From Bdellovibrionota bacterium (GTDB lineage Bacteria > Bdellovibrionota > UBA2394), in contig JBILFF010000001.1 in the NCBI GenBank assembly GCA_044351695.1, forward strand, positions 66,722-130,721: DNA of 64,000 bases. Direction: 5' to 3'. Below the pieces are notes generated by a model. That model worked only from the letters and a program-made list of their open reading frames with translations, had not been told where the DNA came from and searched no databases. Positions 6,988-56,314 of this stretch are shown here, piece by piece. The translations under genes and the position numbers were made by a program. Within the stretch, counting starts at the first letter, position 1. Each line of letters begins with the position of its first letter.

Positions 6988-6989
6988 AA

Positions 6990-8165: not shown

Positions 8166-8175
8166 TTAACAACCT

Positions 8176-8547: not shown

Positions 8548-8551
8548 AAGC

Positions 8552-10065: not shown

Positions 10066-10075
10066 GGCATCCTTT

Positions 10076-10876
10076 TTATCGGGTCAGTTTTTGGCGTTGT
10101 CTTTTTTTGAGATTCTCGAGCAAAAAATGTGCCCTTAGATTTTTGGGGTCTTTTCGAATCATTTCTTCGAAAATCGCGGTTGCTTTTGCAACCTCTCCCG
10201 TCATTTCAAAGCAACTGGCTTTTTCAACCAGAATTCCAATTTCATCTCGCCCACAGTTTTTAGGAAACTGCATTTCTGCCAAATCAAAAACCTCTTTGCA
10301 CTTATCTTGAACCGAATAAACCTGAAGAAGATCTAACTGCAAGCTTCGCAACTCCTCGCAATTCTCTACCTTTCTCGCCATCTCGAGACTCTGACGAAAC
10401 CAATGGGAGGCTTGCTCATAATCGTTATTGGCCAAATAAACGCGGGCCAGCTCCTCACAAAACTCCAAAGTGAAGGGCCCAGCCTGAACCATGGGTGACA
10501 GGGCATCCAGAGCCCGCTCTGGATTCTCTAAATTAATTCTCCAAATCTTTGAGGCCATCAATCTCAAAGCTCGGATCTCTGCCTGATACTCAGAAACCTG
10601 CGAGTACTCTTCAAACAATCTTGAGAGGGCCGCCGTGGCTTCACGATACTCGTTAAGTTGCATCGCCGAAACCATCGCCAAGCCTTTGAGCGCTCGATAG
10701 CGAACGGCATCTCTTTCTTTTCGTTTTTCGAGAACTTGCAAATAGAGATACTTTGCAAGCTGGGCCTTTTGATCGAGAGCCTCACGATCCGCTTTCTCTA
10801 CCAGCCTCACATGATCCGGAGTGCAGGCTCCCAAGATCCAAAAAAAGCTGGCTACGACCAATGCTCTCGCAGTCAT
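10076..10876 (-). CDS. TPR-repeat lipoprotein
   Basis: Signal peptide with lipobox (LGAC), then multiple TPR-like helical repeats. Confidence 0.6.
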   Translation of the reverse strand: MTARALVVASFFWILGACTPDHVRLVEKADREALDQKAQLAKYLYLQVLEKRKERDAVRYRALKGLAMVSAMQLNEYREATAALSRLFEEYSQVSEYQAEIRALRLMASKIWRINLENPERALDALSPMVQAGPFTLEFCEELARVYLANNDYEQASHWFRQSLEMARKVENCEELRSLQLDLLQVYSVQDKCKEVFDLAEMQFPKNCGRDEIGILVEKASCFEMTGEVAKATAIFEEMIRKDPKNLRAHFLLENLKKRQRQKLTR

Positions 10877-10879
10877 TTT

Positions 10880-13321: not shown

Positions 13322-13353
13322 AAATCACCGTCTCTCTTAAAATTCTATCGGAC

Positions 13354-15738
<2,385 letters not shown>

Positions 15739-15762
15739 CTAGAGCGAAGATTAGCCTGAGGC

Positions 15763-16908: not shown

Positions 16909-16920
16909 ATGCCACCCACT

Positions 16921-18081
16921 TTAATTGGCTTCGCTACCCAATTGCATGGGCATCACAATATTGAGTGAGCCGTCGCTCTTCATTCCTTTAATAAGACTGG
17001 GAGAAAGAACATCGCTCAGTTCAATCACCACATTCTCTTGGTTGTTCATCGCATTCAAAATATCGATAAAGTATCCGGCATTAAAACCGATTTCGATATC
17101 ACTGCCTTGATAATCAATATCTAGATCTTCTTTCGCTTCTCCCAACTTAGGATTGCTTGAAGATAAATGCAGTCGTCCATTCTTCAGTTCAAATCTCACC
17201 GAGCGCGAATGCTCCATCGATAAGACTGAAATTCTTTTTAGAGAATTGAGCAGCTGCTCTCTCTTGATGATTACCCTCTTATCGTTGCTGTCTGGAATGA
17301 CGGGTGTGTAATCAGGAAACTCACCATCCAAGAGACGCATAAATAACTGAATCTGTTGGTTATCTGTCCAAAAAACTGCGTTTGAATTCATCAAACAACA
17401 ATAAAAAGAATCTTCTTCACTCAAAAGACGGCGAAGTTCTGAGAGCCCTTTACGAGGTAAAATGACTCCCTTTTCAAGATCTACTTCGCCTCCGGCCTCA
17501 ACCATTTGATCCATCATCGATAGACGATGCCCATCGGTAGCCACCATTCGAAGATAGTCTTTTCCTTTTTCTTTGAGTCGCTCTAAAAATACGCCGCTCA
17601 AATCATAACGACTTTGATCGTTTGAAACCGCAAAGATCGTATGATCAATCATTTGAGCAAATTGGGATGATGTCAGTTTGAAGGATTTCTCAGAATCGAT
17701 TTGTGGAAGCTGAGGAAACTCATCTGCATCTTGGCCAACTAATTTAAAGACACTCTTGCCCGAGATCAGCTCGATCCAAAAATTATCAAAAATATGAAAC
17801 TGACATTCGCTATCAAGAGGAAGCTCTCGAACTATTTCATAAAGACTTTTTGCAGGCACAGCCACTTTACCAGCTTTACTCACCTTCGCCGGAAAGCTAA
17901 GGCGCAGCCCGACTTCTAAATCTGTGGCACTAAAGATCACGCGATCTTCACCGGCTTCTATGAGTAAATGGCTCAGAATCGGAATCGTATTCTTTTTGTC
18001 CACGACAGACTGAACCCTTTGCAAAGCTTTCAACAAGCTTTCTCGTCCAATCTCAAAGCCGGCTTTTTGATGGCTCTTCAT
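16921..18081 (-). CDS. dnaN: DNA polymerase III beta sliding clamp
   Basis: Three-domain beta-clamp. Classical dnaA-dnaN-recF-gyrB order. Confidence 0.9.
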   Translation of the reverse strand: MKSHQKAGFEIGRESLLKALQRVQSVVDKKNTIPILSHLLIEAGEDRVIFSATDLEVGLRLSFPAKVSKAGKVAVPAKSLYEIVRELPLDSECQFHIFDNFWIELISGKSVFKLVGQDADEFPQLPQIDSEKSFKLTSSQFAQMIDHTIFAVSNDQSRYDLSGVFLERLKEKGKDYLRMVATDGHRLSMMDQMVEAGGEVDLEKGVILPRKGLSELRRLLSEEDSFYCCLMNSNAVFWTDNQQIQLFMRLLDGEFPDYTPVIPDSNDKRVIIKREQLLNSLKRISVLSMEHSRSVRFELKNGRLHLSSSNPKLGEAKEDLDIDYQGSDIEIGFNAGYFIDILNAMNNQENVVIELSDVLSPSLIKGMKSDGSLNIVMPMQLGSEAN

Positions 18082-18150
18082 ATTGATAGGCTCTAGGAAT
18101 ATGTTTCTGTAAACCCTTTGTAAATTCGTTTTTGATGGGCCTAAAAGATT

Positions 18151-18226
18151 TGGTGGACCGGATCGGGGTCGAACCGACGACCTCTACAATGCCATTGTAG
18201 CGCTCTACCAACTGAGCTACCGGCCC
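18151..18226 (-). tRNA. tRNA-Ala(GGC), CCA encoded
   Basis: Cloverleaf folded by hand: acceptor GGGCCGG/CCGGTCC with the G3:U70 Ala identity pair, anticodon loop AT-GGC-AT, T-loop TTCGACC, 3' CCA. Confidence 0.85.
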
Positions 18227-18834
18227 ACTGAAAGACTCTTCTTCTTACGTGAAAGATTTTCAGATCTCAAATGAGATTCGCTCTGACGCTGTGCGTAATT
18301 ATGCACAAGCTCGCCAGATTCTACTAAGAGGGGCCTTTTAGTTTTAATTTTTTCTAATAGTAGTCGTAGTAGGTACCCCACTTCCCTGTGGAAATGTACT
18401 AACATACTGTAATTATTGACTAATTTATTCACAGCGCCTGTGGAGATTTTATACACAATTTTGGATTTTCAAAAATTTATCCACAATTTCTAAAAATCTC
18501 ACACAGAATTCACAGGCTACACACAGGAGTTATGCACAGGTCTGACAATTTCATGCACAGCTGTGCATAAATACCTGTGCATAAGTCTCTTTTTCCTTCA
18601 TTTATGCACAGCTTTGTCTTCTTGCGGCGCGAGAGCCTGTGCATAACTCCTAATAAATTAAAAAAAATGAGTAATTTCAATAGGATATTATCCACAGGCC
18701 TGTGCATAAATCTGTGCATAAAGTGTGCATAACTGCCAAAATCTGTGCATAAATAATGACAAGCTTTGCTGAGACCAGCAAAAGTGACGACTATAAGTCA
18801 CCTTTAAAAATTGAAAGATTAAAAAAAATAGAAC
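18227..18834. promoter_or_regulatory. Chromosomal origin of replication (oriC) with DnaA-box cluster and AT-rich unwinding element
   Basis: At least 14 copies of TTAT(C/G/A)CACA or TGTGCATAA. Starts: 18299, 18425, 18449, 18477, 18530, 18562, 18576, 18602, 18638, 18688, 18701, 18713, 18724, 18744. AT-rich stretch about 18650-18690. Lies between dnaA and dnaN. Confidence 0.85.
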
Positions 18835-20358
18835 TTAAACGCCTAGATCTCGAATCTGAGTTTCAATTCGACCGAGAGATTCTTTCAGAAAAGGATCCGA
18901 ATCTTGCAATCGTCCAATTCGTCGAACGGCATGCAGAACCGTCGTGTGATTCTTCCCACCAAATAGGGTTCCAATATCGGGCAATGAGAGATTGGTGTAC
19001 TTGCGACACAAAAACATCGCTAACTGTCTGGGAGTAGCGAGTTCACGGGTCTTCTTTTCACCCTTCAGATCGCCGATGCTCAAGCGGTACTGACGAGCGA
19101 CCAGCTTCATGATCTCTTCAGGATCACGAAATACTGGAGAGCCGTCTTGCGACTCCGGTTTTAAAACATTTTTGGCTAATTCTACAGTGATCTCTGATCC
19201 TGAGAGCGAGGCGAAGGCACTCAATTTTAAAAGAGCTCCCTCAAGCTCTCGAATGTTGGACCGATACATTTTAGCTAGAAGAAAAGCCACATCCTCGGAC
19301 AAATTGATTCCATCGGATTCTGCTTTCTTAAAAATAATCGCTACACGAGTCTCCATTTCGGGAGGCTGAATATCCACCAACAATCCCATCTCAAAACGAC
19401 TACGCATACGGTCCTCAAGGCCTTCGATGTCTTTCGGGGGTCGGTCGGAGGAGAGAACAATCTGTTTTTGATGTTCGTAGAGGGCATTAAAGGTATGAAA
19501 AAACTCTTCTTGGGTTCGCTCTTTGCCCTTCACAAATTGAATATCGTCGATAATCAAAACGTCGCAGTTTTTACGATATCGATCTCTAAATTCTTCCATT
19601 TTCTCGAAGCGAATGCTTTCGATCATGTGATTGGTGAACTTTTCAAAGGTCGTATAATGCACGCGCAAAGAGGGGTATCGCTCTTGGATTTTAAGACCAA
19701 TCGCATTTAAGAGATGTGTCTTACCGAGACCAACATCTCCATAGATAAAAAGCGGATTGTAATGTTTACCCGGGGCTTCAGTGACCGTGTAAGCCGCTGC
19801 GTGAGCAAATTGATTACTGGCACCGACCACAAAAGTTTCGAAACCATACTTAGTGTTGAGCACTGTTTCAGAAGAAAGAGTGGAGGGTCCCGTCTTTGAT
19901 GGTCCCGTTGGAGGAACAGCGGACACATTTTTTTTGAGAGTCTGAGCCGAAACCGCCGTGCTTGGTCGAGCCACAGCTCTACCGGGGCTAGAAACCCGCT
20001 TTTGTTCAATCGAGAACTCCAAACGATATTTGGCATTTGAGGCCAAACTAAACTGCTCTTCAATTAAGCCTGAATAGTGGTCGTAGACCCAGTCTCTTGA
20101 AAAACCATTAGGAAATCCTAAAACTAAGGTGTTTTCTTTAGCGCCGAGAAGTCGAATGGTAAGGATAAACGATTGAAAATATTGAGGTCTTACAACTGAC
20201 TCGATCGCCTTGAGGGTCCGATCCCAAGCGACCGCCATGTCCTCTGGGACATTTGATTCCTCGCCTTGATTCTCCTCCTCAGTTCTCATATACCTCACAT
20301 CGATCTTTGGGATACCACCTCGGTGGATCTGCAGTAGGTAGTAACTTGTACTCAGCAT
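18835..20358 (-). CDS. dnaA: Chromosomal replication initiator DnaA. Likely start at an internal Met, about 20238 or 20289
   Basis: AAA+ Walker A GDVGLGKTHLL, sensor motifs, and the C-terminal DnaA-box-binding helix-turn-helix (…ATPRQLAMFLCRKYTNLSLPDIGTLFGGKNHTTVLHAVRRI…). Confidence 0.95.
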   Translation of the reverse strand: MLSTSYYLLQIHRGGIPKIDVRYMRTEEENQGEESNVPEDMAVAWDRTLKAIESVVRPQYFQSFILTIRLLGAKENTLVLGFPNGFSRDWVYDHYSGLIEEQFSLASNAKYRLEFSIEQKRVSSPGRAVARPSTAVSAQTLKKNVSAVPPTGPSKTGPSTLSSETVLNTKYGFETFVVGASNQFAHAAAYTVTEAPGKHYNPLFIYGDVGLGKTHLLNAIGLKIQERYPSLRVHYTTFEKFTNHMIESIRFEKMEEFRDRYRKNCDVLIIDDIQFVKGKERTQEEFFHTFNALYEHQKQIVLSSDRPPKDIEGLEDRMRSRFEMGLLVDIQPPEMETRVAIIFKKAESDGINLSEDVAFLLAKMYRSNIRELEGALLKLSAFASLSGSEITVELAKNVLKPESQDGSPVFRDPEEIMKLVARQYRLSIGDLKGEKKTRELATPRQLAMFLCRKYTNLSLPDIGTLFGGKNHTTVLHAVRRIGRLQDSDPFLKESLGRIETQIRDLGV

Positions 20359-20427
20359 TGATCGTCAAAGCTTTTTTCGAGGCAAGCCCTTGACTTGGTT
20401 TTCGATGTTATTGAGATTGGAGAGCTT

Positions 20428-20577
20428 ATGAAAAGAACCTTTCAACCCAGCAAGATTCGGCGAAAGCGATCGCACGGTTTTTTGACTAGAATGGCTACAC
20501 CAGGTGGTCGTCGTATTTTATCAAACCGTCGAGCAAAGGGCCGTGCACGCCTTATCCCCACAGTCTACGAAAAGTAA
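20428..20577 (+). CDS. rpmH: 50S ribosomal protein L34
   Basis: [42 protein letters not shown] matches L34 almost residue for residue. Confidence 0.9.
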
Positions 20578-28859: not shown

Positions 28860-29300
28860 ATGGATTTAAGTATAAAACCTTTAAACCTTTTGTTGCACCT
28901 GGGTCTCTACATCTCGGTGCTTTTAGTGATGAAATTTCTTTATGTGGACCCTGTTTTGCGTCTTCTGCGAAAACGTGAAGCGCTCACAGAGGGTCGCACA
29001 AAGTCCTCGCAAGAAATGCAGCTCAAGATTGCGGAGTTGCAATCGCAGTATGATACGCAGATATCAAGCGTGAAGGCAGAGCTTGAGCTTCGCCGATCAG
29101 GCGAGCTTCGCTCCGCCCAAAAAGAAGTTGGCGAGAAGGTGAAGCGAGCTCAAAAAGAGTTAGATTTGAAACTTCAAGCAAAGCAGGCCCAGCTTGAGGC
29201 GATGGCGAGTGATCTTAAGAAACAAATTCCTGTCTTGGGTGATCAGGTGGGGCGGGAAATGGCCGAAGCTATTATGAGTGGAAGGGTCGTGAGATCATGA
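28860..29300 (+). CDS. atpF: ATP synthase F0 subunit b' (b-type stator subunit)
   Basis: Single N-terminal TM, then a long coiled-coil. First of two b-type genes before atpH. Confidence 0.7.
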   Translation: MDLSIKPLNLLLHLGLYISVLLVMKFLYVDPVLRLLRKREALTEGRTKSSQEMQLKIAELQSQYDTQISSVKAELELRRSGELRSAQKEVGEKVKRAQKELDLKLQAKQAQLEAMASDLKKQIPVLGDQVGREMAEAIMSGRVVRS

Positions 29301-29797
29301 GCCTTTTGTTTAAAGGGATCAATATTGCCATTCTTCTGTTGATCCTCTTTTGGTTTTTAAAGAAAAAGATGGAAACCTACTTTCAACAGCAGCGTGACGA
29401 GCTTGATGGTCATATGAGGCGCGCCGCTGCAGAGTTAGAGAAGATCGAACAAGACTATCAGCAAGTATCAGACAAAATGGCGGGTCTCGACGCCCAGCTT
29501 TCTGAAATGCAAAAACAGAGTGAAGAGTCGATTCAAAAAGATGTGCAGCGACTCAAGAAGGATGCCGACGCCCTCATTCAAAAAATGTCGATGGAGGCAG
29601 AGCAGCGAATGGATAATGAGCTTGGAAAAGCGAAAGCTGAGTTCACGAACGAGCTCATTGATGCCGCTCTCGCTGGAGCGCGTGCTGAGCTTAACAGCAA
29701 GATGTCAAAGATGGACGAGTCTTGGACGGTCAAAATGGTTTCAGATGGAATGAGCGCTGAAAAAGGATCAAGAGAGAGGGCGAACTATGCCTCGTAA
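29297..29797 (+). CDS. atpF: ATP synthase F0 subunit b
   Basis: N-terminal TM plus coiled-coil. Overlaps the previous gene by 4 nt. Confidence 0.75.
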   Translation: MSLLFKGINIAILLLILFWFLKKKMETYFQQQRDELDGHMRRAAAELEKIEQDYQQVSDKMAGLDAQLSEMQKQSEESIQKDVQRLKKDADALIQKMSMEAEQRMDNELGKAKAEFTNELIDAALAGARAELNSKMSKMDESWTVKMVSDGMSAEKGSRERANYAS

Positions 29798-30332
29798 TTC
29801 CGAAGCAGCTCGTCGCTATGCCCGAGCTTTGTATCAGCTCAGCGAGTCCGGCGATCATGGCTCTCGCCCTCAGCAGGTAGTGCAGGAGCTTCGAGCTTTT
29901 GAGCAGGCCTTCACCAAGACCGCAGAGGTTCGGGTGTTTTTAGAATCCCCCATTGTTCAGGTCGCAGAGAAGAGGGAGGCGCTACAGGCGCTTGAGCCGA
30001 GCCTTCCAGCGGCGACAAGATTTCTGATTGTTTTGATGGAGGCTGGTCGCATTTCTCTAATCAAAGAGGTTCGTCGTGAATTCGAATTGCTGATGGAGCA
30101 TGCGTCTGGAGAGGTTTCGGTCACGCTAGAAACCGCGCGCAGCTTTTCAGAGAGAGGGATCGAAGAGATCAAAAGACTCTTAGAGTCTGAGTGGAACAAG
30201 AAAGTGAAGATTGAGCCGGTAGTGAATCCCGAACTTATTGGTGGGTTTGTGGCAAGCTCGGCCGGAAAAAGTTTAAACGCGAGCGCGTTGGGGCAGTTGG
30301 AGCTCCTCAGCGAAAAGCTTGCGTCTGTGTAG
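29787..30332 (+). CDS. atpH: ATP synthase F1 delta subunit
   Basis: OSCP-family size and position. Conserved C-terminal …ELIGGFV…. Confidence 0.8.
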   Translation: MPRNSEAARRYARALYQLSESGDHGSRPQQVVQELRAFEQAFTKTAEVRVFLESPIVQVAEKREALQALEPSLPAATRFLIVLMEAGRISLIKEVRREFELLMEHASGEVSVTLETARSFSERGIEEIKRLLESEWNKKVKIEPVVNPELIGGFVASSAGKSLNASALGQLELLSEKLASV

Positions 30333-30350
30333 ATTAAGGAGAAGCAGCTC

Positions 30351-31871
30351 ATGTCAGTTCGCGCAGAAGAAGTGAGTGAAATTTTAAAGTCAAAGATTAG
30401 AAAGTTCGAGCGTGTCCTTGAGGCCAAAGACTCTGGAACAGTCATCAGTGCCAGTGATGGGATTGCGAGAATTTACGGGCTTGATTCGGCCATCGCCGGT
30501 GAGTTGGTTGAGTTTCCCGGTGGAATTCGAGGTTTGGTTTTGAATCTCGAGTCTTCAGAGGTGGGCGTGGCGATTTTGGGCCGCTACGAGAAAATTAAAG
30601 AGGGCGACACGGTAAAGCGAACGGGTGAAATTGCTTCGGTTCCTGTGGGCGAGGCGCTTTTGGGCCGCGTCGTTGATGCTCTAGGAAATCCTATTGATGG
30701 GAAGGGCCCGATCGATACGAAGCATCGCCGCCCAATTGAAATGAAGGCGCCGGGAATTGTTCCTCGGCAATCGGTGAAAGAGCCCCTTCAAACGGGTATC
30801 AAGGCTATCGATGGAATGATTCCGATTGGCCGTGGTCAGAGGGAGTTGATCATTGGGGATCGTCAAACCGGCAAGACGGCTATCGCGATCGATACGATCA
30901 TTAATCAAAAAGGCCAGGATGTTCATTGCTTCTATGTGGCGATCGGCCAAAAGCAATCTTCTGTGGCACAGGTTGTCTCAAAGCTCGATCGTGCCGGAGC
31001 GATGGAGTACACTACAGTTATTACGGCATCTGCAAATGAGCCTGCCCCTCTTCAGTTTTTGGCTCCATACGCTGGATGCGCGATGGCTGAATATTTTCGA
31101 GACACCAAGAGACATGCTTTGATTGTCTATGACGATCTTTCAAAACAAGCTGTGGCCTATCGTCAGCTTTCGTTGCTTTTGAGACGACCTCCGGGTCGAG
31201 AGGCTTATCCTGGAGATGTTTTTTACGTACATAGCCGACTCTTGGAGCGGGCGTGCAAAAGAAACGACGCTACCGGTGGCGGCTCGCTCACGGCTCTTCC
31301 TATTATTGAAACTCAGGCGGGAGATGTTTCTGCTTATGTTCCGACGAATGTGATTTCAATCACGGATGGGCAGATCTTTTTAGAGAGCGACCTTTTTTAC
31401 TCGGGCGTTCGACCCGCAATCAACGTAGGAATTTCGGTTTCTCGAGTGGGCGGCTCCGCTCAGATCAAGGCGATGAAGTCTGTTGCGGGTAGCTTGCGAC
31501 TGAATTTAGCACAATACCGAGAGCTGGAGTCCTTTGCGCAGTTTGGAAGTGATTTGGATGCAGCGACTCAGCAGCAGCTGACGCGAGGAAGCCGATTAGT
31601 TGAGCTGCTCAAGCAGGGCCAGTACCAGCCGCTGTCTGTAGAAAAGCAGGTCATCTCGATTTACATGGGAGTCAGTGGATTCCTCGATGACATCCAAGTC
31701 AGTGATGTTCGTCGATTTGAGTCGGAGTTTTTAGGATATCTCACGAATCATCATCAAGGAATTCTAGAAGAGATCCGATTGAAAAAGGTGATCGATGATA
31801 ACCATAAGGCCCAGCTCAACCAGATCATCAAAGATTTTAAAGCCAATCAGTTCGTGGGGACTAAAAAGTAG
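30351..31871 (+). CDS. atpA: ATP synthase F1 alpha subunit
   Basis: GDRQTGKT P-loop and the canonical alpha sequence. 506 aa. Confidence 0.97.
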
Positions 31872-31876
31872 AGCTT

Positions 31877-32740
31877 ATGCCTTCTTTAAAGCAAATTCGA
31901 AAACGGATCACGAGCGTTAAGAATACGCGAAAGATCACGAAGGCGATGAAGATGGTCTCTGCGGCCAAGCTGCGTCGGGCAACTGAAAAAGCAGAGTCGT
32001 CGCGACCATATGAGGCCGAGCTTTTAAGGATCTGCTCGACGGTGTTGAAGGATCTAGAGTGGCACTCGCCTCTCTCGGAAAATCGTGAATCTAAAAAAGT
32101 GGTCCTCGTTTTGGTGTCCACGGATCGCGGATTGTGCGGGAGCCTTAACACCAACCTATTTAAGGCCGTGAGTCGCTATGTTGAAGCTCACCCACAGGTG
32201 GATTTTGAGGCGGTATGTTTTGGAAAAAAGGCTCGGATATTTTGCAACAAGAGAGGAATTAAGATCCGAGAAGCGCATATCGATCTTCTGCGGAACGGAA
32301 GATACGCACTCTTCGAATCGGTGGCGCAAAAGCTGAGAGACGCGTTTCTGAACAAACAAATCGATCGAGTTGAGCTTTTCTTTATGCAGTTTAGATCGGC
32401 GCTGATTCAGATGCCCATTCGCAGCACATGGCTTCCTTTTGAGCTGCCGACCGATGTGGAGGCGCTGGAAGGGGCGAGTAGCTATTTGTTTGAGCCCAAG
32501 GGGGCAGAGCTTTTGGATCGCCTAGTTCCTTTGCTGATTAATTTTAAACTATATCGAGCTTATTTGGAGTCTGTGGCTTCGGAGCACGGGGCGCGCATGA
32601 CAGCGATGGATGCGGCCTCCAACAACTGCCGAGACATGATCTCGAGACTGACCTTGCAGATGAACCGTGCGCGACAAGCAGCGATCACCAAAGAGCTAAT
32701 GGAGATTATTGGTGGAGCAGAGGCGATCTCTGCGGCCTAA
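31877..32740 (+). CDS. atpG: ATP synthase F1 gamma subunit
   Basis: MPSLKQIRKRITSVKNT…KITKAMKMVSAAKLRRA N-terminus and conserved C-terminus. Confidence 0.95.
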   Translation: MPSLKQIRKRITSVKNTRKITKAMKMVSAAKLRRATEKAESSRPYEAELLRICSTVLKDLEWHSPLSENRESKKVVLVLVSTDRGLCGSLNTNLFKAVSRYVEAHPQVDFEAVCFGKKARIFCNKRGIKIREAHIDLLRNGRYALFESVAQKLRDAFLNKQIDRVELFFMQFRSALIQMPIRSTWLPFELPTDVEALEGASSYLFEPKGAELLDRLVPLLINFKLYRAYLESVASEHGARMTAMDAASNNCRDMISRLTLQMNRARQAAITKELMEIIGGAEAISAA

Positions 32741-34203
<1,463 letters not shown>

Positions 34204-34204
<1 letters not shown>

Positions 34205-34446
34205 TGAAAGTAAGAATTTCAACACCCGAGCAGGTTGTCTATGCGGGTGAAGCGGATTCTTTAGTGATCGAGGGAGATCAAGGACAGCTCGAGATTCTCC
34301 CTCAGCACGCTCGACTAGTCACTTTTGTGAGGGCAGGTTTGGCGCGGGTTCGCAAGGGCACTCAAGTTCAAGAGTTTAATTTGAACGAGGGAGTGATGAG
34401 GATTCAGAATGATGAAATCAGCATTCTCTCCTCAAGGCTTGCTTAA
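34204..34446 (+). CDS. atpC: ATP synthase F1 epsilon subunit, beta-sandwich domain only, 80 aa
   Basis: Matches the N-terminal domain of epsilon. There is no C-terminal two-helix domain. The stop abuts a convergent gene. Confidence 0.8.
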
Positions 34447-35036
34447 GATTTAGGGCTTTCTTTAGCAGAGAGCTTGATTTGAAGTTTGCCGCGCTCGTCT
34501 TTGCCGAGTTTTAGGGCCAGACCCTTTCCGGGGTGTTTTTCTTTAAAATGAAGGATTTGCTTTTCGAGCTTAAGTTCAAATGAAGCCCGGTCGGGTAGCT
34601 TTGCGGTTGGCCCCGAGCTTTCGGCCAACTTTTTATAGAGAGCATCGATAGCCTTTTTTTCTTTGGGCGAAATTTTGAGCTCGTTTGCTGGGGCGGATGA
34701 GGACTGGGTTTGCCGCGGAGCCGCTCTTTCTCGCTCGTGTACTTTCGCAATAAACTTATCGCGCCTATAAACTCCCTCCTCGATTTGCTGACAAATCTTT
34801 GCCCAGTGAACATGAAGTTGATTGTATCGAGCCTTCAAATTGACGAAGCGGAACTTTTGAGAAGTGGAGTTCATGTCCGCAGGATTGACTCCCAGAAGTT
34901 GGCGTCGCCAATCCGTATGCTGATCTCGAGGTTCAATGCGGGCTTGACCCGAGAAGTAGAGTTCATAAGCGTGCTTAAGATCTTCAAGACCAGATTCAAG
35001 CGATTGAAGCTTCGCGTCTGTCGCGACTGCACTCAT
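34443..35036 (-). CDS. Conserved hypothetical cytoplasmic protein, 197 aa
   Basis: Long ORF with a good coding look. No family recognised. Lys-rich C-terminus. Confidence 0.5.
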   Translation of the reverse strand: MSAVATDAKLQSLESGLEDLKHAYELYFSGQARIEPRDQHTDWRRQLLGVNPADMNSTSQKFRFVNLKARYNQLHVHWAKICQQIEEGVYRRDKFIAKVHERERAAPRQTQSSSAPANELKISPKEKKAIDALYKKLAESSGPTAKLPDRASFELKLEKQILHFKEKHPGKGLALKLGKDERGKLQIKLSAKESPKS

Positions 35037-35197: not shown

Positions 35198-36712
35198 TTG
35201 GTGGGCCGAATATTTCGCGGGCTTCTTTTTTTTCTAGCGAGCCTTGTGATGGTGGAATTTGGAGAGGGCCTGAGGGCTTCGGCCAGACACGCACTCCTTT
35301 TTTCTCCTTCGGGTCAGCGGATTAACGAATCGCCAGCGCCAGCCAATTCGCGCGCTATTTTTCATCGATTGAGTACTGCGTGCGACTTGGATCCACAAAG
35401 AATCTGCATTAACTATCAGTTACAACTCCCCTCAAACATTCAAGAGGTTGAGGTTCTTACTCAGGCCGCAAGCAGCGTCCAGCTATGGACCACATCATCT
35501 GGAGCTCATTTGGGATCGCAGTATCAAGGCTTGTTTGCCGGCTCGGGCCTTCCTTTTGAACGAGACGGGGCTGGGTCTATTTTGCTGGACGAGTTTGGAA
35601 ATCAAAAACTTTCGGGTCCTATTCTGATCTCACTCGCACCGCCACCAGAACTGATTGAGGATTTTGCTGCAAACGAAGTGGCTCGAAACATCTACTACGT
35701 TCTGCCGGATCTCCAAAATTCTCAAGGGGAGCTGCTGTGGGCAGGAATTTACATTAATCCAAAGTTTAATCCCTTGATGGATTGCCAAGCGCCGGCCGCC
35801 AGCTGCTTTTCTATGACGGGCTTTGGTAGCTTTTCTTTGCGGTCTATCATCATTTATCAGTTGGGCTTAATCTTGGGAATCGCAGCTTCCGCTCTTCCAG
35901 ACTCTGTCATGTTTCCAGTGCAAAATCCGAGCTGGCCCAAGAACTACTCTAATCTCAGAGAGCATGAAAAAAATCTCGTGAGAAAGATTTATCAGGGCCC
36001 AGAACCAGAAGATCTCGGAAGCTTGAGGGGCCGGGTCACAAGCGGCGATGGGGGCGCGGGGCGCCCCGGGGCCAGCGTTTTTGCGTTGGCCGCAGATCGG
36101 ATGGATGCCGTGATTCGCACCCAAAGCTTAGATTTGTTTTCAGCATCTACGACGACCAGGCAAGGTGGCGAGTTCGTCTTTGAGGCGCTGATTCCTGGAG
36201 AGTATCTCATTTTTGTAGAATCTCCATTGGCACGGGGGCTTTCAAAAAATAAATTTGATGAATGGGTGAAGCGGTTTGGCGCGGATGAGTATTTTGCGCC
36301 CGAGCTCTATGATGGTCGAGATCGAGAGTCAAACAATGAGCCCGCAGATTTTTCTCCGCAGCTTTTTCGCGTGGCCGCGCGGGTCGTGGTGACAGCCGGA
36401 GAAGAGACCTCGGGTGTTCATGTCATTACCCAGCGAAGTCAATCTGGGTCGGCTCAATTAGTGGCCGGAGGCTCCACCAACGAAATTCTTTCGGATTACG
36501 AATTCAAAGACTTGAAGAATTTGATTCGGGATGAAATTCGATCTCAGCTCGATCGGCCCGAGAAGGCCAAGGGATCCTCAGGTTGTGCCGTCGGCACGCG
36601 GCCAGAAAAGTCTGGCTGGGGTTTTATTTTTGTTTTTTGGATTGCACTATGCCTGTGGTTTCGATTCCGATGGGGTCAGAAAGCAAAATTACACCCTGCT
36701 GGATGCCGGTGA
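35198..36712 (+). CDS. Secreted protein carrying a degenerate (catalytically dead) metzincin-like motif, a CarboxypepD_reg-like beta-sandwich, and a C-terminal TM plus basic tail
   Basis: Signal peptide. IIYQLGLILGI…SVMFP resembles HExxHxxGxxH plus Met-turn with all His/Glu replaced. …GRVTSGDG…GASVFALAADRMD…GEFVFEALIPGEYLIFVESPLARG is CarbopepD_reg-like. Ends …GSSGCAVGTRPEKSGWGFIFVFWIALCLWFRFRWGQK. Confidence 0.55.
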   Translation: MVGRIFRGLLFFLASLVMVEFGEGLRASARHALLFSPSGQRINESPAPANSRAIFHRLSTACDLDPQRICINYQLQLPSNIQEVEVLTQAASSVQLWTTSSGAHLGSQYQGLFAGSGLPFERDGAGSILLDEFGNQKLSGPILISLAPPPELIEDFAANEVARNIYYVLPDLQNSQGELLWAGIYINPKFNPLMDCQAPAASCFSMTGFGSFSLRSIIIYQLGLILGIAASALPDSVMFPVQNPSWPKNYSNLREHEKNLVRKIYQGPEPEDLGSLRGRVTSGDGGAGRPGASVFALAADRMDAVIRTQSLDLFSASTTTRQGGEFVFEALIPGEYLIFVESPLARGLSKNKFDEWVKRFGADEYFAPELYDGRDRESNNEPADFSPQLFRVAARVVVTAGEETSGVHVITQRSQSGSAQLVAGGSTNEILSDYEFKDLKNLIRDEIRSQLDRPEKAKGSSGCAVGTRPEKSGWGFIFVFWIALCLWFRFRWGQKAKLHPAGCR

Positions 36713-37907
36713 TTCTTTGGATGCTTTCGATTTTGCGGTGGCCGGAACTGTCTCGGCTTAACTGAACAAGAATGTCTAAAGCGCTGGCGATTTGAGATCG
36801 AATATAGGCAGGATCCACAGACCAGCCCGATCCCAACACGAGAGTTTCAACGCGGGTAATAGCATCTCGGGGGCTGTTCGCATGAATTGTGGTGATGCAG
36901 CCCGAATGCCCGGTGTTGATACACTGAAGAAAATCCTGCGCTTCATCGCCACGAATCTCGCTGACGATGAGGCGATTGGGGCGAAACCGAAGACTTTCTC
37001 GGATTCCTTCTTTCAGGCCTCCGCGGCCTGTTTCAACGAGGATGGCGTGAGGATGCGGCCAGGTCGTTTCGGCCTCTTCTTCAAGAATAACGAGCCGCTC
37101 TTCTGAGGGAACGGATTCGACAAGACTTCTCATGAGCACTGTTTTTCCGGTAGAGGTCGGGCCGCTGATCAGAATACTTTCTCGTCTTTCGATAACATCT
37201 TTTAGAAATTGGATCTGCTCTTCGCTTCCAAATTTTCTTGCTAAAAGTTCGTTCAAACTAAAAACATGCGGGCGTCCTTTGCGAATACAAATGTGCGGGC
37301 TTTCGACCAGAGGCGGTAGCGCAGCGTGAATGCGTAAGTGTTTTTTGAGGCGCCATGAGGCCCAGCCAGATGATTTTTGAGAGCCAGCCTGGATGAGCTG
37401 AGCGACAAAGTCATCGCTCGAAAAGCGCCAGGGCGAAGCATGGAGGCTTCCTTGATAGTCCACGTAAATGCGGCCTGAGCCGTTGATCATGACCTCATCA
37501 AATTGATCTTCTTCAACTAAATAATTCCACAGCGCTTCATCGCCTGCCGGCTGCGGTCGAAATGGAAATTTTGGTTTTGCCCGAGGAGCGGCCTCATAAG
37601 AAAAGCGAAGCCGGTGTTGGTCTAAAAGAATCTCATCACCCGATTGAAGAGGATGTTGATGAGAGATCAAGAGACCATTCTGCCGAACGAGAGAAGACTG
37701 AGAGCTGTTGATGAGCCACCATTGACCCTCTTCAAACCGTATCTCTACCGAAAAGTTTTTGGAGCTGAGGGTCAGATCAATATCATTAAGGGTGCTCGTG
37801 CCGATTTTGACGCTCTTTGAGCTGATTCGAACACTGCGGAGATTTTTTTTGTTTCCCGCGATCTTTTCTTCGATCTCTAAGTGGATGGGTGGAATATAGC
37901 TCGACAT
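36624..37907 (-). CDS. FHA-domain fused to a TadA/CpaF/VirB11-family secretion ATPase
   Basis: N-terminal FHA (…VKIGTS…NGLLISHQ…GDEILLDQHRLRF). ATPase Walker A GPTSTGKT, Walker B/Asp box RLIVSEIRGDEA, His box TGHSGCITTIHANS. Confidence 0.8.
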   Translation of the reverse strand: MSSYIPPIHLEIEEKIAGNKKNLRSVRISSKSVKIGTSTLNDIDLTLSSKNFSVEIRFEEGQWWLINSSQSSLVRQNGLLISHQHPLQSGDEILLDQHRLRFSYEAAPRAKPKFPFRPQPAGDEALWNYLVEEDQFDEVMINGSGRIYVDYQGSLHASPWRFSSDDFVAQLIQAGSQKSSGWASWRLKKHLRIHAALPPLVESPHICIRKGRPHVFSLNELLARKFGSEEQIQFLKDVIERRESILISGPTSTGKTVLMRSLVESVPSEERLVILEEEAETTWPHPHAILVETGRGGLKEGIRESLRFRPNRLIVSEIRGDEAQDFLQCINTGHSGCITTIHANSPRDAITRVETLVLGSGWSVDPAYIRSQIASALDILVQLSRDSSGHRKIESIQRITGIQQGVILLSDPIGIETTGIVQSKKQK

Positions 37908-37916: not shown

Positions 37917-38171
37917 CTATCGAAAGTCGGCCGTTTGCTCATCTCGTTGCTCTTCGGAGAGCGGCGTCCCGCCACTGCGCAGATACTCCTCGTAGTCAAA
38001 TTTGCCGCCGCTTTGGCAGTCGGGGGTAAAGGCAGCCTCATTGACCGGCCGATCGGTAACATCATTTGCATCGAGGACACACAGATTTTCGGTCCCACAG
38101 GCGCTCAAAACCCCTAAAAGCATTAGAAAACTGAAGAGCTTCCAATATTGCATGCCGGAACTTAGTAGCAA
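37917..38171 (-). CDS. Small Cys-containing lipoprotein (84 aa), probably co-transcribed with the FHA-ATPase
   Basis: Signal peptide with lipobox LSAC. Ends 10 nt upstream of the ATPase start. Four Cys. Confidence 0.5.
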   Translation of the reverse strand: MLLSSGMQYWKLFSFLMLLGVLSACGTENLCVLDANDVTDRPVNEAAFTPDCQSGGKFDYEEYLRSGGTPLSEEQRDEQTADFR

Positions 38172-38278: not shown

Positions 38279-39142
38279 GTGTTAGGTGCTTTGGTGAATT
38301 TTTCTTCGAGGTCCGGAGGAGCGTTTAGAGATCCAGTTTGGCTGGGGGCCTGGCTTATGGTTTCGCTTCTCATTCATGCCATGATCATGAGTTTTGTGGT
38401 TTTTTGGGCGCCTCAGATGGGCGGCACGAAGAGCCATGTGAGTTCGCCGATTCCGGTAGAGATTGTTCAGCGACCTAGCGAGCTCATCAAGACCCTACAG
38501 CCCGAAGCCACCGAGAAGCCCGATGATGCCAATTTTGTGAGTGATCGGGATTTGAAAGCAGATGAAGAAACAAGCCCAGAACTGGCCGCTCTCGATATGC
38601 CGAGCGCGGGCACGGCAGGAGCCGCTAAGGGGCGATCTGTACGTGAATCAAAGCCCAAGACCCGCGAGAGCTTTGGTTTGAGCTCCGCTGATAAAGAAGC
38701 GCTCGAAGATCCACTGCAGGGCGGGCAAGCGAGAGAGTTTCGTCAGTTTTCTCCGGGCTTTCAAAAGCGTCTCAAGCGAGGTGAGCAACTGAAGGTCAAC
38801 GCCTTTGGCCTTGATTACGGCCAGTATTATTTACGCATGAAAGAGAGGCTCGCGCAGCGCTGGAGGCCGCTTTCAGTGATCAGTCCGGCCATGTACAATT
38901 ACGATGAAGTTCAGGTTCTAGTGGCGATTGTTTTAAACTCAGCGGGTGAGCTGGTGGACCTCGAAATTCTTCGACCCTCTTTCTTTTCGCGCTACGATCA
39001 GGTGGCGATCGATGCCATAAAGGCAGCCGCTCCATTTCCGAATCCACCCAAGTCGATCATTCAGGACGACGGACGAGTCTATGTGACCTGGGGATTTGTT
39101 TTAAACATTGGCCGTTCAGGACTTCAGCGCGGGATCCAGTGA
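38279..39142 (+). CDS. TonB C-terminal-domain protein (TonB-family energy transducer-like)
   Basis: N-terminal TM anchor, charged linker, C-terminal TonB_C-like domain (…VLVAIVLNSAGELVDLEILRPS…AIDAIKAAAPFPNPP…). Confidence 0.6.
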   Translation: MLGALVNFSSRSGGAFRDPVWLGAWLMVSLLIHAMIMSFVVFWAPQMGGTKSHVSSPIPVEIVQRPSELIKTLQPEATEKPDDANFVSDRDLKADEETSPELAALDMPSAGTAGAAKGRSVRESKPKTRESFGLSSADKEALEDPLQGGQAREFRQFSPGFQKRLKRGEQLKVNAFGLDYGQYYLRMKERLAQRWRPLSVISPAMYNYDEVQVLVAIVLNSAGELVDLEILRPSFFSRYDQVAIDAIKAAAPFPNPPKSIIQDDGRVYVTWGFVLNIGRSGLQRGIQ

Positions 39143-54392: not shown

Positions 54393-56244
54393 AATTTCTT
54401 ATCAGGCTTACAGCGATCTTGAGCAGCTTCCGACGGGTACAGGATGTTATATTTTTAAGAGCCAAGAAGGCGGAGTTGTTCTTTATGTGGGTAAGGCTAA
54501 AAACCTTCGGGCCCGGGTCCGACAATATTTTATTCATGAAGAAGGGGATGGCCGTGCTTTTTCTAGGATCATCGGAGAGCGTACTCGCTTTATTGAGTTT
54601 ATTCTCGTTCAGACCGAGCAAGACGCTTTTGTCTTAGAGAACGAGCTCATCAAAAAACACCACCCTCTCTACAATATTCACTTAAAGGACGACAAAAGAT
54701 ATCTCAGCCTTCGTTTGGATCTGCAGCACGAGTGGCCCCGAGTCGATGTGGTGAGAAAAATTAAAAAAGACGGAGCGGTCTACTTTGGACCGTTTTCGTC
54801 AGCCACTCGTTTGCGTGAAACACTGAATACGATGCAGCAGGTCTTTCCGCTTCGTTCATGTCCTGACTCAAAGCTCTATAACCGGTCTCGGCCCTGTATC
54901 GAATACGATATCAAACGATGTGTGGCCCCGTGTGTAGGCAAGGTGACCCGAGAAGACTACCGCGCGCTGGTGGACCAAGCTGTAAAATTTTTAAAAGGAG
55001 ACAGTGAGCCGCTGATGACTGAGCTAGAGAGTCAGATGAATGAGGCCGCACACTCAGAGAAGTACGAAGAAGCCGCCCTGCTTCGAGATCGCTTAAAAGC
55101 CATCGCTGAAATCACGCAATCCAAGCAACAGGTGATATCGCAAGATCAATATCAAAAAGGATTCGATTGTGATGCGCTCGGCCTCGCGCGAGACGAGGAG
55201 CGGTTGATTGTTGTTCTCCTGTTTGTGAGGAGCGGGGTGATCTTGGATCAGCGAAGCTTTGATATCCGACATAAAAATCTCGAAGAAGCGGAGCTCCTCG
55301 CGCAGTTCATTGATCGCTACTACAACAGTGAGGTCTATGTGCCTCATGAGGTTTTGGTTCGGCGAACTTTGGACTCGGATCAAGAGCTTTTGCCGGTGCG
55401 ACTGGTGATTCCTCGGGCCGAGGAGAAGAAGAACTTTTTACAGATCGCCGAAAAAAATGCCGAAGCTCAGCTGACGGCGCGGCGCGAGAGAAAAGAAAAG
55501 GTTTCGGCCATCTTGGATGCTCTTCAAAAGCACTTGGGCCTGAGCAAGCGCCCCACGACCATGGACTGTCTGGATATTTCGCACCACCAGGGAGAAGAGG
55601 TGGTGGCTTCGGTCGTGCGATTTCGCGATGGCGTGCCGGAGAAGGATTTTTATCGTCGAATTCGGCTCGAGGTGCAGCGGGTAGATGATTTTGCCTCCAT
55701 GAGAGAGGTGATCCGAAGGCGATACAAGAAACAAGAGGATCTGCCTGATCTCGTGGTGATTGATGGGGGCCGAGGACAACTAAGCTCTGCGGAGGAGGCC
55801 TTTCGCGAGAATGGATTTTTAGAGCATATCGATTTGGTTTCGCTGGCCAAGGCGCGCGAGACCCATGAGCCCATCGACCCCTTTAATCCGATGAATCGAG
55901 AGCGCATTTTTAAGTTGGGGCAAAAAAATCCAATTTTGTTAGCAAAAGATTCGTCAGAAGAATTGCTTTTGAGCTTTTTGCGAGATGAGGCCCATCGTTT
56001 TGCGATCACTTATCATCGCAAGCGGCGTTTAGATTCGATTTCGACCTCTATTTTAGATCAGATTCCGGGAATGAGCTCGAAACAGAAAATTAGACTTTTA
56101 AAAGAGTTTGGCTCGGTGAAGGGGATACGGGGAGCCAGCGATTTTGATTTGCTTAAACTGGTGAAGCCAAGACTGCTCGAAAAAATTCGAGAACATCTTT
56201 CGGCGGAGCTCGACGTCGAAGAGGATTTTTCAGAAGAAGAATAA
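54385..56244 (+). CDS. uvrC: Excinuclease ABC subunit C
   Basis: GIY-YIG N-terminus (GCYIFKS…LYVGKAKNLRARV), UVR domain, Endo V-like domain and HhH. Confidence 0.95.
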   Translation: MPEISYQAYSDLEQLPTGTGCYIFKSQEGGVVLYVGKAKNLRARVRQYFIHEEGDGRAFSRIIGERTRFIEFILVQTEQDAFVLENELIKKHHPLYNIHLKDDKRYLSLRLDLQHEWPRVDVVRKIKKDGAVYFGPFSSATRLRETLNTMQQVFPLRSCPDSKLYNRSRPCIEYDIKRCVAPCVGKVTREDYRALVDQAVKFLKGDSEPLMTELESQMNEAAHSEKYEEAALLRDRLKAIAEITQSKQQVISQDQYQKGFDCDALGLARDEERLIVVLLFVRSGVILDQRSFDIRHKNLEEAELLAQFIDRYYNSEVYVPHEVLVRRTLDSDQELLPVRLVIPRAEEKKNFLQIAEKNAEAQLTARRERKEKVSAILDALQKHLGLSKRPTTMDCLDISHHQGEEVVASVVRFRDGVPEKDFYRRIRLEVQRVDDFASMREVIRRRYKKQEDLPDLVVIDGGRGQLSSAEEAFRENGFLEHIDLVSLAKARETHEPIDPFNPMNRERIFKLGQKNPILLAKDSSEELLLSFLRDEAHRFAITYHRKRRLDSISTSILDQIPGMSSKQKIRLLKEFGSVKGIRGASDFDLLKLVKPRLLEKIREHLSAELDVEEDFSEEE

Positions 56245-56314
56245 GCGCCGAAACCACTTCATGACGGAGGTTTCTTCGGGCCGAGTGTAAACGGAGGCTG
56301 GCGCAAAGGCCTCT

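Follow-up and report, generated by a model that had tools for sequence, protein, structure and literature searches.

The ATPase gene and its neighbours

The window, by which the whole stretch of 64,000 nucleotides that was analysed is meant, carries on its minus strand an open reading frame of 427 codons that begins with ATG and represents a real gene (Table 1). A confident AlphaFold2 model was obtained for the whole protein (pLDDT 88.9). In the preliminary description of this DNA the product was taken for a fusion of an FHA-fold domain with a CpaF/TadA-type ATPase, and this was borne out by a Pfam T2SSE match and by the model of the FHA fold. The fusion is not unusual: KilF is an FHA-CpaF (PMC8460266), FHA-3HB-NTD-CAD is one of the three recognised classes of CpaF architecture (PMC12019362), and FHA-CpaF-type fusion proteins number in thousands.

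Table 1. Coordinates of the ATPase gene, of its domains and motifs, and of the adjoining genes (numbering of the window).
Feature	Position (nt)	Strand	Remarks
Whole ORF	36624..37907	-	FHA-fold domain and CpaF-derived ATPase, 427 aa; defines a narrow clade
FHA-fold domain, residues 1-105	37593..37907	-	all-beta; without canonical pThr-binding residues
Linker and one helix (123-132), residues 106-137	37497..37592	-	CpaF has a three-helix bundle here
ATPase NTD, residues 138-225	37233..37496	-	includes shortened Loop 8 region
Shortened Loop 8 region, residues 173-186	37350-37391	-	without GRRxD; carries clade-specific GWxSWR
Catalytic ATPase domain, residues 226-414	36666..37232	-	
Walker A, residues 249-256	37140-37163	-	GPTSTGKT
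Asp box	37065-37085	-	LEEEAET
Clade-specific motif	37047-37061	-	WPHPH
Truncated pore loop	37014-37034	-	ETGRGGL
Arg fingers	36978-36992	-	LRFRP
Walker B	36948-36971	-	
His box	36873-36914	-	
Small Cys-rich lipoprotein gene	37917..38171	-	lipobox ...LSAC-G-x3-C; 9-nt gap to the start codon of the ATPase
TonB/TolA-like bitopic protein	38279..39142	+	divergent; TonB_2 C-terminal domain; invariant S-x3-H in TM helix
Metzincin-like exported protein	35198..36712	+	convergent; zinc motif destroyed; CarboxypepD_reg; C-terminal Cys, TM and basic tail
Cytoplasmic protein of ~190 aa, family unassigned	34443..35036	-	conserved; adjacent in most loci; within 7 kb in L016

Given the short gap between them, the gene of this small periplasmic lipoprotein and the ATPase gene probably form one operon. 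The same pairing was seen in all 12 related loci that were read, the lipoprotein gene ending 3-54 nt before the ATPase start. Of the lipoprotein itself, the position of the gene and the lipobox/Cys pattern were the only features conserved, and BLAST gave no alignment across loci. The metzincin-like gene, which is adjacent in all loci, overlaps the 3' end of the ATPase gene with its own 3' end by 89 nt, and a convergent 3' overlap of 70-100 nt recurs in several loci. Judged by its zinc-binding motif, which is destroyed, its product is catalytically dead. A search for homologues of this protein returned the identical protein only, which we attribute to a divergence so rapid that the word index misses other members of the family. 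The TonB-like gene adjoins in all loci, including the rearranged locus L016. Its product keeps in the TM helix the S-x3-H typical of ExbBD/TolQR coupling and is therefore probably independent of the ATPase; that the ATPase energises it was considered and is unlikely, given the invariance of this motif.

In L016, where other genes stand in place of the gcv and atp flanks, the genes for the TonB-like protein, the lipoprotein, the ATPase and the metzincin-like protein were still found together. It is the only locus that separates this core from those flanks, and most of the conserved neighbourhood reflects an order of housekeeping genes that is shared near the replication origin. A scan for promoters and terminators between 34.3 and 39.3 kb yielded sites no more frequently than in shuffled sequence. 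With PADLOC the lipoprotein, the TonB-like protein and the metzincin-like protein matched nothing, the ~190-aa protein gave two marginal methyltransferase matches only (E = 0.006 and 0.01), and the sole match of the ATPase was at the level of the P-loop (mad8, 20.9 bits). An assignment to an anti-phage defence system was rejected because of the nature of this last match.

A search of the window, of the adjoining 10 kb on its left and of the ~6 kb that remain on its right before the contig ends turned up no tad, pilus or secretion genes. More particularly, tadB/tadC, flp, rcpA and tadZ, and likewise genes for T2SSF proteins, a secretin, an FHA partner or a Ser/Thr kinase, were absent from the window, from these flanks and from 18 related loci with 10 kb on either side. 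Kil-type neighbours (prepilin peptidase, secretin, FHA proteins, platform genes) were not present in the window or its flanks, and T4SS genes were not found near the ATPase gene. The claim that the apparatus which the ATPase would drive is not encoded locally thus stands for about 80 kb. Elsewhere in the genomes that carry such an ATPase, tad, kil or T2SSF genes may be present.

The FHA fold and the catalytic core

Homologues that align with the protein over its full length constitute the clade that is described further below, of which 31 members were compared. The AlphaFold2 model of the N-terminal domain (pLDDT 91) resembled FHA domains almost exclusively (TM 0.65-0.8), and a profile of this domain built from the clade matched the FHA domain of EmbR with E = 1e-5. 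The Pfam FHA model (PF00498) scored 17.5 bits on the protein itself, which is under its cutoff of 20.7, and reached E <= 0.01 in only 8 of the 31 members. A YscD-type Pfam model matched three of them, and both YscD and KIF13B were among the sequence and structural matches of the domain.

The residues R312, S326 and N348, with which EmbR contacts phosphothreonine, correspond to T37, N51 and S72. Throughout the clade the position of R312 is occupied by S, T or N, and the positions of S326 and N348 are variable. Gly36 is retained, Thr37 stands in for the arginine of the GR motif, and neither SxxH nor NG is conserved. The full signature for phosphothreonine binding (the GR arginine, the Ser and His of SxxH and the Asn of NG) was present in none of the 31 members. 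Of the canonical phosphothreonine-binding FHA domain that had been described, the fold consequently remains and the canonical pocket does not, its contact residues being unconserved in these members. The control by Ser/Thr phosphorylation that had been deduced from the domain is not supported, given the clade-wide loss of the same residues; as far as the proposed search for STPK genes concerned the neighbourhood, it also revealed neither a kinase nor an FHA partner in the window or the 18 related loci. This calls for caution: an FHA fold alone is no proof of control by a Ser/Thr kinase, and the residues of the pocket need to be checked.

The Pfam T2SSE model matched residues 190-386 with E = 9e-34. 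By this match and by the presence of all core motifs, the protein is placed in the PilT/VirB11-like secretion ATPase superfamily. Its closest solved structure is Caulobacter CpaF, which scored 148 bits in a phmmer search of the PDB vs 78 bits for VirB11, and the closest fold found by Foldseek was likewise Caulobacter CpaF (8rjf, E = 1.7e-30). All three NCBIfam models remained below their cutoffs: the TadA-family model TIGR03819 scored 194 bits (cutoff 373), and near full-length alignments with the TrbB model TIGR02782 and the VirB11 model TIGR02788 scored 155 bits (cutoff 305) and 149 bits (cutoff 250), respectively. In the ATPase tree, which is rooted with VirB11, the clade falls on the side of CpaF. 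Membership of VirB11/TrbB was rejected, as the scores are below the cutoffs and the similarity is far weaker than that to CpaF, which leaves a resemblance only. The preliminary assignment as a VirB11/CpaF ATPase can therefore be kept for the CpaF/TadA type, to which both the PDB score and the 8rjf fold point, and has to be given up for VirB11.

The Walker A lysine, the Asp-box glutamates, the Walker B glutamate, the His box and the arginine fingers are all kept in the clade, and none of the 31 members deviates at K287, E308, E312, R347, R349, E357 or R359 (Caulobacter numbering). The Walker A motif had been called slightly deviant. It does differ from the GGTGSGKT that is typical of CpaF, but it fits GxxxxGK[ST] and is functionally not deviant.

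A narrow clade and its platform-coupling elements

In the homologue search the full-length homologues, which are 43-67% identical to the protein, were followed by a fall in E from 1e-85 to 1e-54 at the ordinary CpaFs, which align over the ATPase part only. A scan of 185,579 reference genomes with the clade-specific motifs found the clade in 11, all of them uncultured Bdellovibrionota-like MAGs; the hosts of the clade are labelled Bdellovibrionota, Bacteriovoracaceae or Bradymonadales. That these hosts are uncultured is a practical limit. The clade was monophyletic in 48 of 50 bootstraps, on a long branch with no specific sister group, and the mean distance between its members and other CpaFs was 1.28 vs 0.54 within the other CpaFs. 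The preliminary description had put forward an ATPase phylogeny as a check, and had named an ordinary CpaF clade together with an adjoining tad locus as the outcome that would speak against it. The tree shows a separate clade on a long branch, not one within the ordinary CpaFs, and the flanks are free of tad genes.

The ORF was intact at every locus examined. Within the clade 59 alignment columns are invariant, including all catalytic residues as well as W182, W283, H285 and H287. Together with the confident model and the conserved operon partner, this indicates that the clade is under purifying selection. When the profile of the N-terminal domain was run exhaustively with HMMER, none of the 150 best matches other than members of the clade carried a CpaF part. 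A shared origin with the canonical FHA-CpaFs was rejected on this ground and for lack of affinity in the ATPase tree.

According to the current view, motor ATPases of the type IV filament superfamily work by turning a platform of the PilC/TadBC type. In recent structures of CpaF the three-helix bundle, Loop 8 and the pore loop were taken as the coupling elements (PMC11300603, PMC12019362), and 3HB + NTD + CAD was given as the minimum architecture of CpaF (PMC12019362). [quoted passage not shown] The extended pore loop, also named Central Loop, comprises 13 residues including E331 and G334 and is one of these predicted platform contacts.

All three elements are affected in the clade. Its pore loop measures 6 residues in 31/31 members vs 13 in 110/110 other CpaFs, a biased sample drawn from searches seeded with the protein of the window and with P0063. 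E/D331 is deleted in every clade member and present in all 110 of the others. Loop 8 is shortened from 12 residues to ~6, and its residues G204, R205, R206 and D208, kept in 108-110 of the 110 other CpaFs, are missing in all 31 members. The three-helix bundle is missing, and the model has just one helix (123-132) in the stretch that leads from the FHA fold to the NTD. The spacing between FHA domain and NTD is ~31 aa in the clade vs ~120 aa in canonical FHA-CpaFs, the NTD strand beginning at median residue 136 vs 222. The positions of the lost platform elements are occupied or adjoined by the invariant, clade-specific motifs GWxSWR and WPHPH. This loss of platform-coupling elements and the conserved operon with the small lipoprotein are the most distinctive features of the clade.

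Possible roles and relation to known systems

The engine has been kept and all three platform-coupling elements have been lost, which suggests that the protein probably performs another job in the cell envelope. We give an even chance to the reading that the gene encodes a hexameric ATPase derived from CpaF/TadA and since repurposed. Such a protein would still form an ATP-driven hexamer and would no longer drive a canonical TadB/C platform for pilus assembly. Its remodelled pore-side face and the FHA-like adaptor would bind another partner, independently of phosphorylation, in a process linked to the envelope. It speaks against repurposing that the analysis yielded no candidate for a partner that has a cytoplasmic domain. 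A more specific version is put forward only tentatively: a platform-independent motor of the type IV filament family, with a new conserved surface (GWxSWR, WPHPH) in place of the platform-binding face and a phosphorylation-independent FHA adaptor, might constitute an undescribed envelope machine together with the presumably co-transcribed lipoprotein and perhaps the TonB-like and dead-metzincin proteins. As the clade is under purifying selection and lacks the three coupling elements while retaining the engine, it can be regarded as a natural deletion experiment on the coupling model. If its members drive a platform via another interface, that model needs to be revised; if the engine was recruited to a different job, the known roles of the superfamily are widened.

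As the main alternative, the protein could be an accessory or alternative motor that acts in trans with a Tad- or Kil-type pilus machine encoded elsewhere in the genome, its FHA-like domain serving recruitment or regulation. We consider this possible but doubtful. In sequence as in structure no family is closer than CpaF, and there are precedents: the FHA-CpaF KilF cooperates with genes from two separate clusters (PMC8460266), and in Bdellovibrio bacteriovorus the tad genes are dispersed and tadA3 stands isolated (bioRxiv 10.64898/2026.07.08.737194). In addition, Bdellovibrionota, Bacteriovoracaceae and Bradymonadales, the labels of the hosts, are groups reported to have Kil-like systems. However, three predicted platform contacts are lost, of which Loop 8 and the pore loop are present in all other CpaFs sampled; neither the ATPase tree nor the FHA domain reveals a special affinity to FHA-CpaFs; and the phosphothreonine pocket is gone, with no kinase or FHA partner nearby.

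An improbable alternative is that the ATPase belongs to a small lineage-specific envelope module built from the conserved neighbours, where the effect of its ATP hydrolysis would be passed on across the envelope or would serve the export or anchoring of the metzincin-like protein. The parts at hand would be a lipoprotein that is VirB7-like in size, a TonB-like protein that is VirB10-like in topology, a surface-anchored dead metzincin and the ~190-aa protein. The constant pairing of lipoprotein and ATPase (12/12 loci), the block that is intact in L016, the recurring 3' overlap with the metzincin-like gene and the VirB11-type resemblance of a short pore loop without Loop 8 are in line with this. 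Such a module would, however, be without a polytopic membrane protein or channel, the S-x3-H of the TonB-like protein is what one expects of a protein coupled to a proton-motive-force motor, none of the neighbours resembles a known secretion family and T4SS genes are absent. Moreover, the linkage comes from one rearranged locus and could for the rest be inherited synteny near the replication origin. Least credible is a decaying or functionless tadA paralogue left after loss of a Tad locus: the gene is an orphan on a long branch that has lost its coupling elements, but its ORF is intact everywhere, 59 columns are invariant among proteins 42-67% identical to it, the AlphaFold2 model is confident and the operon partner is conserved.

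For the repurposed ATPase that we prefer, several known systems offer a comparison. The FHA-fold modules of YscD/EscD and of KIF13B are protein-protein adaptors that work independently of phosphorylation. The cytoplasmic domain of YscD/EscD (type III secretion) and the FHA domain of the kinesin-3 KIF13B likewise are FHA beta-sandwiches without a canonical phosphothreonine pocket; the likeness to the clade is limited to the fold and the loss of signature residues, and no specific relationship was seen. VirB11/TrbB of the same superfamily has a two-domain core without a three-helix bundle and a short loop on the pore side, and according to the alignment lacks Loop 8 as the clade does. Even so, H. 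pylori VirB11 is further from the clade than from ordinary CpaFs.

Caulobacter CpaF/TadA (8rjf, 8rkd, 9e24) shares with the protein the NTD and the catalytic fold, Walker A and B, the Asp and His boxes, the arginine fingers and the CpaF-type C-terminal beta-hairpin region, at an identity of about 31-36%. It differs in possessing the three-helix bundle, GRRxD, the extended pore loop and E331, and its N-terminal region is disordered where the protein has the FHA fold. The canonical FHA-CpaFs (Achromobacter E3HIW0, P0063 family) keep GR...SRxH...NGT as well as the three-helix bundle, Loop 8 and the pore loop, and in one of their loci (L019) the ATPase is accompanied by a secretin, two T2SSF genes, an FHA protein and a Ser/Thr kinase. 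Their ATPase domains do not group with those of the clade in the tree, and the FHA domain of the clade is as near to generic FHA domains as to theirs.

In B. bacteriovorus, also one of the Bdellovibrionota, tadA3 is likewise a tadA-like gene located apart from the remaining tad genes. The scan with the clade motifs hit no Bdellovibrio genome, so that tadA3, known here by description only, is probably not an orthologue. KilF of Myxococcus xanthus, compared by description and not by sequence, likewise combines an N-terminal FHA fold with a CpaF-type ATPase, and the host lineage of the clade is related to predatory 'delta-proteobacteria'.

ATPase domain and platform contacts

The open reading frame described previously and its domain assignment proved to be real. 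In Pfam, residues 190-386 matched T2SSE (E = 9e-34), and residues 34-95 scored 17.5 bits against FHA, below the cutoff of 20.7; the top NCBIfam scores (TadA-family 194 bits, TrbB 155 and VirB11 149) were all far under their cutoffs. The Walker A motif, GPTSTGKT (residues 249-256), had been called slightly deviant. It differs only from the CpaF-typical form GGTGSGKT and fits GxxxxGK[ST], and is therefore not functionally deviant. The full-length structural model was confident (pLDDT 88.9), and its best match was Caulobacter CpaF (E = 1.7e-30), with VirB11 and FlaI behind at about 1e-20.

Two cryo-EM studies described three elements by which CpaF contacts the platform proteins CpaG/CpaH (TadB/TadC): Helix 5 with Loop 8 (S201-P212, conserved G204, R205, R206 and D208), the extended pore loop or Central Loop (T325-T337, conserved E331 and G334), and a three-helix bundle (PMC11300603, PMC12019362). 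[quoted passage not shown] The bundle, the N-terminal domain (NTD) of the ATPase and the catalytic domain make up the minimum CpaF architecture (PMC12019362). PilT-PilC binding is predicted to proceed through a different motif.

These features were compared, in Caulobacter numbering, between the 31 members of the clade formed by the target and its close full-length homologues and 110 non-clade CpaFs, collected by searching with the target and with P0063, a canonical FHA-CpaF, as queries. The pore loop counts 13 residues in the 110 CpaFs and 6 (ET-GRGG-L) in the 31 clade members, all of which have deleted the E/D331 that is present in every one of the 110. Loop 8 is 12 residues long in the CpaFs and about 6 in the clade, where the motif of G204, R/K205, R206 and D208 (108-110 of 110 CpaFs) is absent. 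Two clade-specific motifs are invariant or nearly so: GWxSWR (residues 181-186), which occupies the place of Loop 8, and WPHPH (283-287), directly before the shortened pore loop. Nor is there a three-helix bundle; in the model the FHA fold and the NTD are joined through a single helix (123-132). In the clade the first NTD strand begins at residue 136 (median), in canonical FHA-CpaFs at 222. K287, E308, E312, R347, R349, E357 and R359, retained in the 110 CpaFs apart from a single R347H, are invariant in 31/31 clade members. The ATPase retains its catalytic engine but has lost the platform-coupling elements.

About 50 full-length homologues (43-67% identity) were found in a large protein database. 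The next matches are ordinary CpaFs, aligned over the ATPase two-thirds only (about 36% identity), and the E-value changes abruptly between the two groups, 1e-85 on one side and 1e-54 on the other. When 185,579 species-representative genomes were scanned for clade motifs, 11 loci came up, each in an uncultured MAG labelled as Bdellovibrionota, Bacteriovoracaceae (UBA2394 among them), Bradymonadales or Deltaproteobacteria. Exhaustive HMMER searching with the N-terminal profile, over 1.84 billion representatives, returned only four from the clade, and none of the other matches among the best 150 carried a CpaF-type ATPase. A phylogeny of ATPase domains, rooted on H. pylori VirB11, was built by neighbour-joining from the 31 clade members, 69 CpaFs, 41 FHA-CpaFs and Caulobacter CpaF. 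The clade was monophyletic in 48 of 50 bootstraps and stood apart on a long branch, on the CpaF side of the root and not inside the ordinary CpaF clade (mean distance to other CpaFs 1.28 versus 0.54 within those). No specific sister group was seen in this tree.

The N-terminal FHA fold

The clade N-terminal profile matched the FHA domains of EmbR (E = 1e-5), KIF13B, Ki-67 and GarA, and an AlphaFold2 model of residues 1-118 (pLDDT 91.3) found almost exclusively FHA domains (TM 0.65-0.8). This confirms that the N-terminal domain has an FHA fold. The phosphothreonine-contact residues of EmbR, R312, S326 and N348, align in the clade with S/T/N and two variable columns, and the target has T37, N51 and S72 at these positions. 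The histidine position of SxxH is hydrophobic. Of the FHA residues, the clade retains just Gly36 and, further on, the structural NG turn. The signature is intact in P0063 (GRSPDCDV...SRHH...SSNGT); canonical FHA-CpaFs have GR in 93/95 and NG[TS] in 90/95, and the full signature occurs in 0/31 clade members. Pfam FHA was matched at E <= 0.01 by only 8 of the 31, and a YscD-type FHA model by 3. The preliminary description was thus right about the fold and wrong about canonical phosphothreonine binding. Nor does control through Ser/Thr phosphorylation follow, since the binding signature is gone and no kinase was detected in the window or in 18 related loci.

Gene neighbourhood

The window covers the chromosomal replication-origin region, with its cumulative GC-skew minimum near 18-20 kb, at dnaA. 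It further holds the atp operon, gcvTHP, hpnH, purKE, carD, ispDF, gltX, uvrBC, comEC-like, tsaD, ksgA, smpB and rnhA genes. The F-type ATP synthase genes lie in two distant clusters (atpI-like/atpB/atpE and atpF/F'/H/A/G/D) and include two b-subunit genes. A stretch of strongly negative AT skew (-0.26) falls on the gene of the ComEC-like polytopic membrane protein, where the codon composition of a hydrophobic protein probably accounts for it.

Features of the window and their coordinates
Feature	Position	Strand	Remarks
ATPase ORF (target)	36624-37907	minus	427 aa, ATG start
Small Cys-rich lipoprotein gene	37917-38171	minus	9 nt upstream of ATPase start
Metzincin (M10)-like protein gene	35198-36712	plus	exported; orthologues in related loci L001, L002, L003, L005, L016
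ATPase/metzincin-like 3' overlap	36624-36712		89 nt
TonB/TolA-like protein gene	38279-39142	plus	TonB_2 domain; divergent from lipoprotein/ATPase
~190-aa cytoplasmic protein gene	34443-35036	minus	motifs YEQYFAG, QIEEGTY.RD, KNPGKK
dnaA	18835-20358	minus	origin region ~18000-20500; dnaN, recF, gyrBA on one side, rnpA, yidC, mnmEG, parAB on the other
ATP synthase cluster	7047-8547	minus	
ATP synthase cluster	28860-34204	plus	
ComEC-like gene	56315-58411		
Negative AT skew	56001-58000		

No pilin, T2SSF platform protein, secretin, TadZ, prepilin peptidase, Ser/Thr kinase or PP2C phosphatase gene was found in the 64-kb window, and tblastn with the secretin, two T2SSF proteins, FHA protein and Ser/Thr kinase of a genuine Tad-type locus gave nothing in the window or the 18 related loci. 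The flanks were read on the same 206,659-bp JGI/NCBI metagenome contig. The 10 kb to the left contain mfd, namZ, a sugar kinase, a DnaJ-like gene and a uvrA paralogue, and the ~6 kb to the right, up to the contig end, a DNA glycosylase, GTP cyclohydrolase I and a 2OG oxygenase. All are non-tad genes, so that no tad locus lies immediately outside the window, and the earlier remark that pilus or secretion partners are missing nearby holds for the window and both flanks.

The loci read share the order TonB_2 protein (divergent), lipoprotein, ATPase, convergent metzincin-like protein and ~190-aa protein. In 12/12 loci the lipoprotein gene keeps its position, on the strand of the ATPase and ending 3-54 nt ahead of its start. 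Its sequence is too divergent for BLAST; constant in all 12 is a lipobox with a second Cys after it (…[AG]C-G-x3-5-C…), and several copies have a CTENFFDGSC-like ending. The metzincin-like protein (390-500 aa across loci) has a CarboxypepD_reg domain and a C-terminal Cys, transmembrane segment and basic tail resembling a sorting signal, for which NCBIfam models gave no match. Its zinc-binding motif HExxHxxGxxH is destroyed in the six copies read, with the Met-turn intact, and it is probably inactive as a protease. In L001, L002, L003, L005, L016 and L018 its convergent overlaps with the ATPase gene likewise measure 70-100 nt, far more than is usual for convergent genes in bacteria. The transmembrane helix of the TonB-like protein contains an invariant S-x3-H, the motif that couples TonB and TolA to ExbBD/TolQR; no exbBD or tolQR genes adjoin its gene. 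About half of the orthologues of this protein have a DPYRIP-like cytoplasmic motif, and a periplasmic stretch, TLQ..A.F.S.RNL.A.E.TSP, is conserved. The ~190-aa protein matched no family.

Possible roles and known FHA-CpaF systems

The best-supported reading, with about even chances, is that the target is a CpaF-derived ATPase, predicted to be catalytically competent, that is no longer coupled canonically to a TadB/C platform. It would act through its remodelled face and a phospho-independent FHA adaptor. Probable co-transcription with the periplasmic lipoprotein gene suggests that the process it would serve is tied to the cell envelope.

A rather less likely reading makes it a motor that drives, in trans, a Tad/Kil machine whose genes lie elsewhere in the genome; Bdellovibrio tadA3 and the split Kil clusters are precedents. 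A small module formed by the ATPase and its conserved neighbours, held apart from the envelope-tied reading because it fixes these neighbours as specific partners, seems improbable. The housekeeping flanks, gcv and atp, share most of the synteny. In the rearranged locus L016 comEC, tsaD, ksgA, rnhA, a methyltransferase and an esterase stand in place of these flanks, yet the TonB-like, lipoprotein, ATPase and metzincin-like genes remain together, which gives one independent support for a core module; the ~190-aa gene, syntenic with it, is at most 7 kb away even there. In L001 and L012 (one lineage) a 1096-aa TPR/Trans_reg_C protein gene and a haem-oxygenase-like gene lie between gcvPB and the TonB-like gene (4107-8767), which shows that insertions are tolerated at this edge of the module. 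A decaying remnant, opposed by the conservation pattern, is very improbable.

The fusion of FHA and CpaF is already known. KilF of Myxococcus xanthus is a CpaF ATPase with an N-terminal FHA domain (PMC8460266), and the FHA-containing architecture is one of three classes among 292 CpaF orthologues surveyed (PMC12019362). With P0063 as query, at least 8000 relatives of CpaF were retrieved, and of the 120 listed most have both FHA and T2SSE Pfam domains. The target is an orphan CpaF-like ATPase stripped of coupling elements, neither a new class nor an ordinary tadA, and its interest would grow if whole-genome analysis showed the host organisms to be without a T2SSF platform. Its locus differs from L019, the Tad/Kil-like locus housing P0063 (ENA ERZ23495180 scaffold_977, 5970-18673), in lacking platform, secretin, FHA-partner and kinase genes, whereas in L019 the canonical FHA-CpaF is surrounded by a short secretin, two T2SSF proteins, an 899-aa RCC1/WD40-repeat protein, a 476-aa FHA protein and a Ser/Thr kinase with a PEGA domain.
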